This document shows positions 4,344 through 46,591 of a stretch of 64,000 bases of DNA, piece after piece. Origin of the DNA: Clostridia bacterium (GTDB taxonomy: Bacteria > Bacillota > Clostridia > Oscillospirales > CAG-382). A program made the position numbers and the translations under genes. The stretch is from NCBI GenBank assembly GCA_017625615.1, contig JAGAKP010000018.1, positions 2,454 through 66,453 on the forward strand, written 5' to 3'. How positions within the stretch are numbered: position 1 is the stretch's first letter; every line of letters begins with the position of its first letter. The notes beneath the pieces were generated by a model. It worked only from the letters and a program-made list of their open reading frames with translations, was not told where the DNA came from and did no database searches.

Positions 4344-5426
4344 CTACTCCATCAATAACTGTTGTGTGTCCTTTGCTCCGTTACCGGGAAAGGGGATACC
4401 CAGATGCTCGTATGCCGCAGGGGTAACGCATCTTCCTCTGGGTGTTCTGTTTATAAATCCGAGCTGCATCAGATAAGGCTCGTATACGTCCTCGAGGGTG
4501 ATAGCCTCCTCGCCGATAACCGCGGCAAGGGTCTCAAGTCCGACGGGACCTCCTCCGAAATGCTTTATTATGGCGGTGAGCATACGTCTGTCCACCGCGT
4601 CGAGACCGAGGGTGTCAACGTCCAGCGAGGATAATGCAATATCCGCTATCCCGCTGTCAATAATTCCGTTTCCCTTTACCTCGGCAAAATCGCGTACGCG
4701 CTTTAAAAATCTGTTGGCAAGTCGCGGCGTCCCGCGGGATCTTCTTGCGATTTCGTATGCTCCCTCTTCGGTTATGGGCGTGCCCAGTATTCCCGCAGAG
4801 CGGGTAACTATGCTCGCAAGCTCCTCGGGGGTATACAGCTCCAGACGGAACAGCATACCGAATCTGTCACGGAGAGGGCCCGTAAGCTGTCCCGCTCTCG
4901 TGGTTGCGCCGATAAGGGTGAAGGGCTGAAGGGGGATACGTATCGATCTTGCAGAGGGACCCTTTCCCATCATAAGGTCAAGGACGAAGTCCTCCATAGC
5001 GGGGTACAGTACCTCCTCTATGGAACGGGAAAGTCTGTGTATTTCGTCTATGAACAAAATGTCTTTTCTGCCAAGCGTTATCAGTATAGCCGCAAGATCA
5101 CCGGGCTTTTCTATTGCGGGACCCGAGGTGACCTTTATATTCACGCCAAGCTCGGCGGCGATGATGGTGGCAAGTGTAGTCTTGCCCAAGCCGGGAGGGC
5201 CGTGAAGAAGCACGTGGTCAAGCTGCTCGTCACGGGCTTTTGCGGCTTTCATAAATACCGAAAGGTTTTCCTTTACCGTTTCCTGACCTACGTACTCGTC
5301 AATGCTTTTGGGACGGAGTGAGTTTTCGTTATCTCTGTCCTCGGGCACCTCGTGAGTGGCGGTCAGACGGTCGTCGGTATCCAATTCCGCGCCGGTATGA
5401 AAATTGTCGGATTGATTTATAGGCAT
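4344..5426 (-). CDS. ruvB: Holliday junction branch migration helicase RuvB
   Basis: Walker [10 protein letters not shown], Walker B FIDEIHR, conserved C-terminal RTPRG motif; lies in a ruvC-ruvA-ruvB arrangement. Confidence 0.95.
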
Positions 5427-5436
5427 ATTACACCTC

Positions 5437-6036
5437 TTACATTAAAGCTAACTTTTTCAGCGCCTCGCCGATGATCGTTTCAAGAGGAAGAGTGGGATCT
5501 ATACCCTTCAGGGCGGCAACCGCCTCCGCTCTCGTATATCCGAGGACGGCAAGAGCATCCACCGCGTCGCTTCCTCCGCCGGAGGCAGCCGTAACGAAGT
5601 TGCTTTCCGTCTGCGCGGAGGAAACTATTTCTCCGCTTATCTTGTCCTTTAATTCAAGTATTATCTTTTGCGCCGTTTTTAGTCCCACGCCGGGTGTGCG
5701 CGAAAGTGTTTTCGCATCTCCTGAGGCGATTACGGAAGCAAGCGCGTCGGAGGTGAAGGTGGACAGCACGTTTATCGCCGCCTTGGGACCTACTCCGGAA
5801 ACGGTTATAAGCAGCTTGAATGCGGATAATTCGTCCTCGGTACCAAAGCCGAACAGCTCCACCGCGTCCTCACGCACTGCCATATATGTAAAGAGTGTTG
5901 CCGTCTTTCCGTAAAGAGGGGAGAGGGAAGCAAAGGTGTTTTTGGATACGGTAAGCTTGTATCCCACACCGCCCGCGTCAATTACAGCGGCATCGGGAAA
6001 CAAAAACTGCAATGTGCCTTTTATATAGTAAAACAT
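5437..6036 (-). CDS. ruvA: Holliday junction DNA-binding protein RuvA
   Basis: 199 aa with the MFYYIKG N-terminus and two helix-hairpin-helix motifs ([16 protein letters not shown]). Confidence 0.9.
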
Positions 6037-6039
6037 AAT

Positions 6040-6525
6040 TTATACTCCCATTTTGTGCATCGTACAGGTGCCGTGGCATATAGCCGCAGCCAGCGCGTCC
6101 GCCGCGTCGTCGGGCTTTGGCGTTTTATCCAGCTTCAGCAAAAGCTTGACCATATACTGCACCTGCTGTTTTTCCGCTCTGCCGTAGCCAACTACCGTTT
6201 GCTTTATCTGCAGAGGCGTGTATTCGTAGGTGTTTATACCTTTGTTTTCGGCGGCGAGAAGCATAACTCCTCTTGCCTGACAAACGTCCACCGCCGTTCT
6301 CTGGTTGGTGTTGAAGAACAATTCCTCAATCGCCATACAGTCGGGCTTGTAGGTGTCTATCAGCGTGCACAGACAATCGTATATTTCTTTTAATCTTTTC
6401 TCAATAAGGGTGTGAGGCGGAGTGGTTATTGCGCCGTAGGATATGGGTGTAAAAACACCCTTTTCGCATCTCACGACACCGTATCCGACGGTTGCAAAAC
6501 CGGGGTCGATACCTATAATGACCAT
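6040..6525 (-). CDS. ruvC: crossover junction endodeoxyribonuclease RuvC
   Basis: 161 aa with the IIGIDPG N-terminal catalytic Asp, IEELFF, and a C-terminal DAADALA motif. Confidence 0.9.
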   Translation of the reverse strand: MVIIGIDPGFATVGYGVVRCEKGVFTPISYGAITTPPHTLIEKRLKEIYDCLCTLIDTYKPDCMAIEELFFNTNQRTAVDVCQARGVMLLAAENKGINTYEYTPLQIKQTVVGYGRAEKQQVQYMVKLLLKLDKTPKPDDAADALAAAICHGTCTMHKMGV

Positions 6526-44861: not shown

Positions 44862-45326
44862 AATATTGTACTCCAAAAAGTATTCAAAAGCGCTTTTGTG
44901 ATTTTATTATATCAGATTTAAAAAAATATTCCACGAAGTGTTTGTTGAGGCAAAGTATAGTTTTGCTTTGATTTTCAAAGATATTATAGCACAAAAACTT
45001 AAATATATCAAGTTGCATTTTCTGCTTTCCCGACGCTTGCGTCTGGGGCAAGCATAGCGCGTGGACGTCCACCGCCAAATGGCGGCGCACGTCTCGCTCC
45101 GTCCCTGCGCTCACGCCGGGACAATATCGGGCAGAAGCCCGAACCAACTAAAAAAGCAAGGCTTTTCAACCTTGCTTTATTTCGGAATATTTAAGCAATA
45201 AATTCTTTGCCTTATCATTCTCCTTTCGCATCCAAATCACGCCGCAGGCGTGTATGGAATCCGCAACTTGTTGCGGAATGGAATTGCGACGCAGTCGCGT
45301 ATGTAATCAAGCCGCAGTGAGACGCG

Positions 45327-45452
45327 TATACACGCTTCCACGTGATGCCATACGCCTGTGGCGATGCCATACACGCTGACGCGTGATTCCATACCAAGCC
45401 TGCGGCTTGGATAAAAAGAAAACGTCCGAACATTGTTCGGACGTTTCTTTTT
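45327..45452. repeat. hairpin-rich intergenic repeat, copy 2, abutting the tRNA 3' end
   Basis: Same conserved blocks as copy 1. Hairpins are CACGC-tgac-GCGTG, CCAAGCC-tgc-GGCTTGG, and the terminator AACGTCCGAACA-ttg-TTCGGACGTT with flanking A/T runs. Confidence 0.65.
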
Positions 45453-45527
45453 TGGTGACCCGTAGGAGAATCGAACTCCTGTTACCGCCGTGTAAGGGCG
45501 GTGTCTTAACCGCTTGACCAACGGGCC
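45453..45527 (-). tRNA. tRNA with UAC anticodon (formally tRNA-Val) on a tRNA-Glu-type body
   Basis: The minus strand reads GGCCCGT TG GTC AAGCGGTTAA GAC A CCGCC CTTACAC GGCGG TAAC AGGAG TTCGATT CTCCT ACGGGTC A CCA. The cloverleaf is good, with a 3-bp D stem, a 4-nt variable loop and the ACACCGCCCUU.CACGGCGGUAAC core typical of bacterial tRNA-Glu, but the anticodon is UAC instead of UUC. Confidence 0.8.
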
Positions 45528-45532
45528 GTTTA

Positions 45533-45608
45533 TGGTAGCGGAAGTGGGACTTGAACCTACGACCTGCCGGGTATGAACCGGATGCTCTGCCAACTGAGCT
45601 ATTCCGCC
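45533..45608 (-). tRNA. tRNA with CAU anticodon (Met or lysidine-Ile2 type), slightly degenerate
   Basis: GGCGGAA TA GCTC AGTTGGCA GAGC A TCCGG TTCATAC CCGGC AGGTC GTAGG TTCAAGT CCCAC TTCCGCT A CCA. The cloverleaf folds but has G1.U72, U27.C43 and A51.C63 non-Watson-Crick pairs. Confidence 0.7.
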
Positions 45609-45712
45609 ATTTTATTCCGCTTTTCTTGCCGTCGTGCTGACAGCTTGCTTATTATACCAAGCTTTTTTTCATTTGTCAATAGTTTTTTTATTAAAAATGA
45701 AAATAATGTTTC

Positions 45713-46591
45713 TTGAAAAGTATATATGTATATGTTATAATTTTATGGGGTGATATTTTCTTGAACCAACAGTTCCTTTTACATAAAGACACAGCGGTGT
45801 ATTATACCTCTCCGCTTTTTGATACGTATTCCGTGCCTCACGCTTTTTTCACACGCCACGGCGGTGTCAGCGCTTCTCCCTTCGATACCCTTAATTTCGC
45901 TGTCGGTACAGGTGAAAAGAGGGACGATGCACAAAGCGTTCTTTTAAACCACCGTATTGCCGCTTCAGTCTTCGGACTTGACGAAACAAGCGTCTGCCGT
46001 ACCTATCAGACCCACAGCACCACCGTGCTTTTGGCTGACGAAAATGACCGCGGCAGGGGAACGGTGTTGCCTCCCTACGATTGCGACGTTGACGGACTCG
46101 TTACCGTCTGTGAGGAGCTTATCCTTTCCGTCCGAAGTGCAGATTGCGTGCCCATATTGCTTTACGATGTTAAAAACGATATCTGCGGCGCGGTACATTC
46201 GGGCTGGCGGGGAACGCAGGGCAATATTTCCGGCGTGGCAATTGAGAAGATGTGCGCACTCGGCAGTGATAAAAAGGATATTATCGCCGCTATCGGACCT
46301 TGCGCAGGCGTTTGCTGTTACGAGGTAGGCGCAGAGCTGTATCATATCTTTACCGAAATAAATAAAGATTATTCCAAATACTTCGTTCCCAAGGAAAACG
46401 GCAAATATTTCCTTGACCTTACGGGACTTAATACCGCGGTGCTTATAAACAACGGAATCGACGATAACCGCATTTCCGCTTGTAATATATGCACCTGCTG
46501 TAATACAAAGGATTTCTTTTCTCACCGAGTTATGGGTAAGGAAAGAGGAACCATGGCGTCGTTTATTATGAACAGGAGGAAGGCAAAATGA
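45713..46591 (+). CDS. pgeF: peptidoglycan editing factor PgeF / YfiH (DUF152, laccase-domain) protein
   Basis: Conserved HG..., DC.P.., HSGWRG and C.C.. zinc/copper ligand pattern (SADCVPILLYD, HSGWRGT, CNICTCC). The true start may be the TTG at 45761 after a GGGGTGA RBS. Confidence 0.8.
   Translation: MKSIYVYVIILWGDIFLNQQFLLHKDTAVYYTSPLFDTYSVPHAFFTRHGGVSASPFDTLNFAVGTGEKRDDAQSVLLNHRIAASVFGLDETSVCRTYQTHSTTVLLADENDRGRGTVLPPYDCDVDGLVTVCEELILSVRSADCVPILLYDVKNDICGAVHSGWRGTQGNISGVAIEKMCALGSDKKDIIAAIGPCAGVCCYEVGAELYHIFTEINKDYSKYFVPKENGKYFLDLTGLNTAVLINNGIDDNRISACNICTCCNTKDFFSHRVMGKERGTMASFIMNRRKAK

Follow-up and report, generated by a model that had tools for sequence, protein, structure and literature searches.

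The bacterial tRNA-Glu(UUC) of Firmicutes and Clostridia type is the closest described counterpart of the gene analysed here. The two share the chromosomal locus, a tRNA-Met partner, a 75-nt body, a D stem of 3 bp with A13/A22, the U11-A24 pair, a 4-nt variable loop, A73 and an encoded CCA. The difference is an A instead of a U at anticodon position 35, which among the compared loci occurs only in the present assembly. A second group of described systems combines the body of one identity with the anticodon of another. In bacteria, tRNAPro variants of this kind are extra genes that are conserved across species, and ProRS identity tolerates the anticodon change. Bacterial tRNAPro with non-proline anticodons, as described in PMC10404621, resemble the present gene in their mixed make-up. 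However, the present gene is neither extra nor conserved, and GluRS depends strongly on U35 according to the treatment of identity elements in PMC9976931.

The third group consists of tRNAs that changed identity during evolution. In the eukaryotic alloacceptor shifts described in PMC3923123, a syntenic ortholog changes its amino-acid class through one anticodon substitution, and the mitochondrial tRNA remolding described in PMC4783518 follows the same formal pattern as the gene studied here. The shifts and remolding events documented in these two sources took place in multi-copy families or after duplication, with the original function kept. The present gene, in contrast, is the only Glu(UUC) copy seen and a singleton in a draft MAG.

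In the description given in PMC9976931, U34, U35, C36 and A37 are strong Glu determinants, and the U11-A24 pair, the 13-22:46 triple and the absence of nucleotide 47 are further ones. For valine, the same source names A35, C36 and A73 as main determinants and G20 and G45 as minor ones; A35 and A73 are common Val determinants, and transplantation of A35, C36, A73, G20 and G45 together confers valine acceptance (PMC9976931).

We analysed a window of 64,000 nucleotides from a draft Clostridia genome (G000), in which an earlier note had described a tRNA-Glu-type body carrying the valine anticodon UAC. Our preferred reading, to which we give a probability of roughly 80%, is that the gene is the ordinary single-copy tRNA-Glu(UUC) of its genus with one miscalled or mis-threaded base in the draft assembly. 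A35 is doubtful because the gene is orthologous to tRNA-Glu(UUC) genes that are single-copy in the genus, because the change is a singleton and because no metagenome contig supports it.

Structure and Identity Determinants of the tRNA Gene

On the assembled sequence, ARAGORN calls the gene a 75-nt tRNA-Val with anticodon TAC (Table 1). It matches Rfam RF00005 over the full model with 64.3 bits (gathering score 29) and zero non-standard pairs flagged. Folded as a single strand, it forms a cloverleaf of -28 kcal/mol, in which the D stem consists of 3 Watson-Crick pairs. The variable loop has 4 nt (UAAC), the anticodon arm reads ACACCGCC-CUUACAC-GGCGGU and the 3' end is ACGGGUC-A-CCA. Weak Rfam hits under the tRNA and the terminator, namely MicC (28.6 bits, gathering score 90), Tymo_tRNA-like and Plastid-ycf2, fall far below gathering and were dismissed as chance.

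Table 1. Coordinates of the tRNA operon and of the doubtful base in the window.
Feature	Position	Strand	Basis
tRNA gene, Glu-type body, encoded CCA	45453-45527	-	ARAGORN; Rfam; cloverleaf fold; orthologs
Anticodon position 35, single doubtful base	45493	-	Comparison with relatives; contigs of runs X1-X4
tRNA-Met(CAU), first gene of the operon	45533-45608	-	ARAGORN; Rfam 62.3 bits; adjacent Met(CAT) in 29/29 relatives (best loci)
Putative sigma-70-type promoter, TTGACA-17-TATAAT with TG extension	45651-45679	-	12/12 consensus match only
Predicted intrinsic terminator, 13-pair hairpin with a 3-nt loop and a T-run	45419-45447	-	Inverted repeat I1

The isotype was judged from sequence identity with orthologs and with other tRNAs of the same genome. 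The closest tRNA in the genome is tRNA-Glu(CUC), which matches the gene at 60 of 75 positions. The genome's Val(UAC) on contig C42 matches at 51/75 and its Val(GAC) on contig C48 at 49/75, and both values lie inside the range of unrelated tRNAs (41-54/75). Identity to the genome's Val tRNAs is therefore at background level, and the body is not of Val type. In these canonical Val tRNAs the D arm is of the common GCUCAGUUGG type and the variable loop is 5 nt long. Sequence and Rfam alignment place U11-A24, the absence of nucleotide 47 and a Glu-type D arm in the gene under study. Its position 13-22 is A/A, as it is in all orthologs, whereas E. coli has U13-G22.

In the anticodon the assembled gene departs from the Glu pattern, as it reads U34-A35-C36-A37 in place of U34-U35-C36-A37. 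Of the main Val determinants only A35 is new, as C36 and A73 already belong to the Glu gene of the relatives and occur in all orthologs. By the numbering used here, U20 and A45 take the place of the minor Val determinants G20 and G45.

The structural description in the earlier note withstood these comparisons. The cloverleaf, the 3-bp D stem, the UAAC loop, the core arm and the ACGGGUC-A-CCA end are all present in the sequence, and the Glu-type body with a Val anticodon is borne out by 60/75 identity to Glu(CUC) and 74/75 identity to the Glu(UUC) of 12 relatives. The note had further stated that tRNA-Val has a differing D arm, which the genome's own Val genes confirm, and that the ValRS determinants A35, C36 and A73 are present, as all three are in the assembled gene. 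The disagreement between anticodon and body is a genuine property of the deposited sequence. If the base were real, the identity rules would predict that GluRS charges the tRNA poorly and that ValRS may charge it, though suboptimally, and a redundant Val tRNA would be expected rather than a Glu-inserting misreader.

Operon and Genomic Neighborhood

The gene is the second gene of an operon that consists of a promoter, tRNA-Met(CAU), tRNA-Glu and a terminator. The putative sigma-70 promoter is placed 43 nt upstream of tRNA-Met, which itself lies upstream of the Glu gene at a spacing of 5 nt, and the terminator hairpin begins 5 nt past the CCA. A second predicted promoter with an 11/12 match lies divergently (+ strand) in the AT-rich stretch and is directed towards a PgeF-type gene (Cu-oxidase_4 in Pfam, 235 bits), beyond which SbcD-like and SbcC-like genes follow. 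The opposite flank of the operon contains a gene for an HTH regulator. Among the six flanking ORFs that were scanned, none encoded an integrase or phage protein.

The earlier note had placed the gene next to an AT-rich insertion and a slightly degenerate CAU tRNA, and had suggested an accessory or mobile-element origin. Neither neighbor fits that description: the AT-rich stretch holds a divergent promoter pair with 12/12 and 11/12 sigma-70 matches, and the CAU tRNA scores 62.3 bits and has both of its mismatched pairs in common with the congeners. That a mobile element or phage carried in an accessory tRNA is hardly credible. The same site and neighbors recur in 9/9 congeners with aligned flanks, the Met-Glu tandem is conserved in 29/29 relatives, the neighboring genes are housekeeping genes and a search of IMG/VR gave 0 hits. 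What would point to such an origin is the earlier impression of an AT-rich neighbor, which the pair of predicted promoters accounts for, and the short palindromic repeats at about 45230-45410.

The tRNA-Met(CAU) is presumably of the elongator type, by its likeness to Bacillus tRNAs. In the Rfam alignment it carries two non-standard pairs, U27-C43 and A51-C63, which are identical in eight congeners (L002-L009). The ninth congener (L012) keeps both pairs in a slightly different body. U27-C43 is also shared by those members of the family that were compared from other genera, where 51-63 is U-G. The non-standard pairs are conserved oddities rather than decay. The D loop of this tRNA-Met is 1 base shorter than that of six congeners and has the same length as in L007 and L009.

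Downstream of the terminator, the non-coding interval 45230-45410 is dense in short GC-rich palindromes and direct repeats, with the motifs GATKCCATAC and AATCAMGCCGCAG. Over the four metagenome runs X1-X4 (see below), its summed depth was 200-1000 versus 5-8 on the unique flank. The interval is therefore a REP-like dispersed repeat, either here or in co-resident genomes.

Orthologous Loci in Relatives

The Met-X tandem was sought in 40 relatives and in the genome itself, and the best 29 loci outside the genome were compared. In all 29, tRNA-Met(CAT) adjoins tRNA-Glu(TTC) at the same chromosomal site, and the UAC variant was found at 0/29 orthologous loci of this family and order sample. At position 45493 the window has T on the + strand (A35 in the tRNA), where all relatives have A (U35). 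The Glu gene matches the gene under study at 74/75 positions in 12 of the 29 loci, with position 35 as the sole difference; these 12 comprise eight of the nine same-genus species and four species from other genera of the family. The ninth congener has three differences, position 35 included. The earlier note had claimed a U35A shift from bacterial tRNA-Glu(UUC), this identity supports one substitution at position 35 relative to the clade's Glu(UUC), and the comparison of orthologous loci that it proposed returned Glu(TTC) every time and never TAC.

In the nine same-genus loci the flanks align at 71-82% identity and the tRNA pair is 93-97% identical. By this comparison the site is orthologous and the tRNA is strongly constrained. 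One relative (L027) has a tandem Glu-Glu duplication at the locus.

Copy Number and Codon Demand

A pattern scan found exactly one Glu(UUC) anticodon arm per genome in 9/9 congeners, always at the orthologous locus. In the 77-contig draft G000 no exact Glu(UUC) arm was found, and a scan with one mismatch gave four sites: the gene under study, Glu(CUC) and two sites that are not tRNAs according to ARAGORN. The inventory of Glu and Val tRNA genes that the earlier note had suggested yielded Glu(CUC) and the canonical Val(UAC) and Val(GAC), with no other Glu(UUC) arm. An extra gene beside an intact Glu(UUC), the arrangement of the tRNAPro variants, was not seen in this 93%-complete genome, and the congeners are single-copy. 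The assembly comprises 2,042,028 bases with an estimated completeness of 93.37% and 29 tRNA genes, and a gene that is missing from it may still exist in the organism.

The assembly is also without tRNA genes for Phe, Tyr, Trp, Cys, Asn and Ile(GAU), and without those for Ala(UGC), Pro(UGG), Thr(UGU) and Ser(UGA/GCU). Missing tRNAs of this kind are typical of tRNA/rRNA clusters lost from short-read MAGs.

Codons were counted in 963 ATG-to-stop ORFs of at least 300 codons, which were not curated. GAA makes up 17,889 of 476,652 codons (37.5 per 1000) and is the commonest Glu codon of the genome, while GAG and GUA occur at 30.2 and 22.2 per 1000, respectively. By established wobble rules, a tRNA-Glu(CUC) with C34 is unable to read GAA. 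If the only U34 Glu tRNA had turned into UAC, the commonest Glu codon would therefore be untranslatable. Since GAA is the commonest Glu codon and the gene is the sole copy, tRNA-Glu(UUC) is needed; since canonical Val(UAC) and Val(GAC) are present, a new Val tRNA is not.

These results bear on the two outcomes that the earlier note had proposed, a recruited Val tRNA of Glu ancestry or a tRNA that misreads GUA as Glu. As fixed biology neither could be upheld, as the change is a singleton in the sole Glu(UUC) gene, GAA is the major Glu codon and the variant is present in 0/100 metagenome contigs.

A real and recent U35A shift within the strain would be viable only with a second, wild-type Glu(UUC) that was left unassembled or was collapsed, for example in a Met-Glu-Glu tandem. 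The mutant gene would then have lost GluRS recognition and, by gaining A35 beside C36 and A73, would have become a redundant and probably inefficient tRNA-Val(UAC). Such a shift is unlikely in our view. A second Glu(UUC) arm was found in 0/9 congeners, the variant is in 0/29 loci of the relatives and in no contig of the four runs, the minor Val determinants G20 and G45 are replaced by U20 and A45, and two canonical Val tRNAs are already in the genome. Several observations nevertheless argue for it and against an assembly error. Firstly, the base stands in the deposited contig, and the remaining gene is flawless, with a predicted promoter and terminator, while the change falls exactly on the middle base of the anticodon and puts all main Val determinants named in PMC9976931 in place. 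Secondly, a second, wild-type Glu(UUC) could be missing from a 93%-complete assembly with 29 tRNAs, and the Glu-Glu tandem of L027 makes a collapsed duplicate conceivable. Thirdly, a separate wild-type Glu(UUC) is found in two other MAGs with a changed position 35 (G041 and G044), five variants at position 35 stand against none at position 36 (see below) and evolution by anticodon shift is documented in eukaryotes (PMC3923123).

A real UAC tRNA could also still be glutamylated, in which case it would insert Glu at GUA Val codons and act as a natural mistranslating tRNA. The gene retains the Glu determinants outside the anticodon (U11-A24, no nucleotide 47 and the Glu-type D arm), and natural mistranslating tRNA families exist in bacteria, as described in PMC10404621. 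However, U35 is a strong GluRS determinant in the account of PMC9976931, and glutamylation should drop severely upon its loss. Moreover, GUA is frequent in this genome, which would make replacement of Val by Glu costly, and no Glu(UUC) other than the changed gene was seen, with neither an extra copy nor conservation in relatives. We consider glutamylation of a real UAC tRNA very improbable.

Metagenome Contigs at the Locus and a Proposed Entry Route for a Wrong Base

Twenty public metagenome runs contain part of the locus in the form of Logan contigs. Four of these from three studies (X1-X4, with X1 and X2 from one study) were compared over positions 45200-45900. Of the sampled locus words, X1 contained a fraction of 0.83 and X2 of 0.80, the highest among the runs, and the assembly may derive from these two. 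Position 45493 was covered by 26 contigs in X1, 26 in X2, 30 in X3 and 18 in X4. All of the summed depth at this position reads A on the + strand, namely 6090.7 of 6090.7 in X1, 5593.7 of 5593.7 in X2, 5411.7 of 5411.7 in X3 and 6438.6 of 6438.6 in X4. The T of the window was found in 0/100 contigs, which is weak evidence as contigs drop rare variants.

The unique flank of the organism had a depth of 7.1 in X1 (45560-45900) and of 5 in X2 (45735-45900), in both cases with 0 other letters. The tRNA core, in contrast, is collapsed across taxa, with a summed depth of about 5400-6400 versus 5-8 on the flanks of the organism. An allele of 5-7x under about 6000x of shared sequence would be invisible in contigs that drop rare variants, and the contig result therefore fails to support the variant but does not disprove it. 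The earlier note had named reads with UUC at this position as an observation that would speak against its interpretation; at the level of contigs UUC is indeed what was found, and this does not carry over to the level of raw reads.

We propose the following course of events for the preferred reading, that of an ordinary tRNA-Glu(UUC) in which one base was assembled wrongly. The organism's tRNA-Glu(UUC) would be an essential gene that is transcribed from the strong sigma-70 promoter as a tRNA-Met/tRNA-Glu dicistron. This transcript would end at the intrinsic terminator and then be processed, and the mature tRNA would be charged by GluRS and read GAA and GAG. A35 would be an error of a draft, metagenome-type assembly and not the base of the organism. 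An identical 75-nt tRNA in many co-resident gut species would explain the summed depth of about 6000x against about 5-7x on the gene's own flanks. Within a repeat of this kind, k-mers that contain errors, or a rare variant of a foreign genome, may be covered as deeply as a genome of low abundance and become threaded into that genome's contig. The wrong base thus probably entered through the high-depth repeat shared across species.

If the base is real, the locus would be a rare bacterial example of an essential tRNA in the middle of an identity switch, or a natural Val-to-Glu mistranslator, and it would bear on the origin of deviations from the genetic code. Annotation pipelines would call the gene tRNA-Val and the genome devoid of tRNA-Glu(UUC), and both calls are probably wrong.

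The Variant Anticodon Arm in Other Genomes

The Glu-type arm with UAC (AAGACNNNGCCCTTACACGGC) was scanned for in species genomes, JGI metagenome contigs and IMG/VR viral contigs. The species collection holds one genome for each of 185,579 species and excludes the genome of the window by design. It contained 13 loci with the UAC arm, of which 11 were archaeal tRNA-Val, one was a chance hit in a coding region and one was a Glu-type tRNA. The archaeal loci are ordinary tRNA-Val of Nitrososphaeria whose body differs, as they have 55-58 matches to the 75-nt gene. The single other Glu-type UAC tRNA (L036) comes from a gut Fusicatenibacter MAG, and its body is unlike that of the gene studied here. 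No Glu-type UAC tRNA was present among the 26 loci from JGI metagenome contigs (19 archaeal Val, 7 non-tRNA), and the arm was found at 0 loci in the IMG/VR viral contigs.

Other changes of the anticodon served as controls. With C or G at position 35, the scan gave 85 loci and three Glu-type tRNAs, of which L093 and L095 carry UGC and L103 carries UCC; each comes from a gut MAG and adjoins tRNA-Met. With A, G or T at position 36, it gave 41 loci and 0 Glu-type tRNAs. There are thus five Glu-type arms with a changed position 35 (the present gene, L036, L093, L095 and L103) against none with a changed position 36. Of the four other MAGs with a changed position 35, G041 and G044 have a separate wild-type Glu(UUC), and in G042 and G043 none was found.

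The 5-to-0 skew is not predicted by uniform random error, weighs against the error reading and leaves a small probability on biology. One such biological explanation would be that the base is real and that gut Clostridia repeatedly mutate position 35 of the Met-linked tRNA-Glu. This would produce missense-decoding or identity-switched tRNAs with UAC (the present gene and L036), UGC (L093 and L095) and UCC (L103), which would be kept as an additional gene copy or within subpopulations that are merged in short-read assemblies. Taken as a joint claim, this has only a slim chance of being correct. The preferred reading of an assembly error is favored by the oddity of other gut MAGs at the same tRNA and by the chimeric appearance of L093.

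In L093 (positions 23-97, - strand), the UGC Glu-type tRNA has a G4-G69 clash in the acceptor stem, whose 5' and 3' strands correspond to the types of two different species. From its sequence, L093 looks like a chimeric assembly within a shared tRNA. More generally, tRNA genes that are common to many species in one metagenome can carry single-base or chimeric errors in draft MAGs. A disagreement between anticodon and body in a MAG should therefore be taken as biology only after comparison with orthologs and with reads anchored in the flanks.

A scan of position 33 was considered as a pure error control and rejected, as the 25 tRNA-Glu genes that it returned with C33 or G33 are probably real, many being present in multiple species. 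U33 is near-universal in tRNAs. Among L201-L266, from Clostridia MAGs, there are 25 tRNA-Glu(UUC) genes called by ARAGORN, and one more that is cut by a contig end, without U33. C33 (loop CCUUCAC) is found in 22 of these genes and G33 in L205, L214 and L217. Several of the bodies recur across species representatives, and many adjoin tRNA-Met. In four of the five C33/G33 genomes checked, a U33 arm of the same type was not found; three of these genomes are only 0.9-1.1 Mb in size. From their recurrence, the C33/G33 tRNA-Glu genes look lineage-conserved rather than erroneous.

Lastly, the anticodon arm GCCCUUACACGGC is present in the Nitrososphaeria tRNA-Val(UAC) of L031-L035, L037, L038 and L040-L043 and in the 19 archaeal metagenome loci. 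These tRNAs of ammonia-oxidising archaea have both GCCCUUACACGGC and the UAAGAC end of the D arm in common with the bacterial Glu-type tRNAs, and differ in the remaining body.
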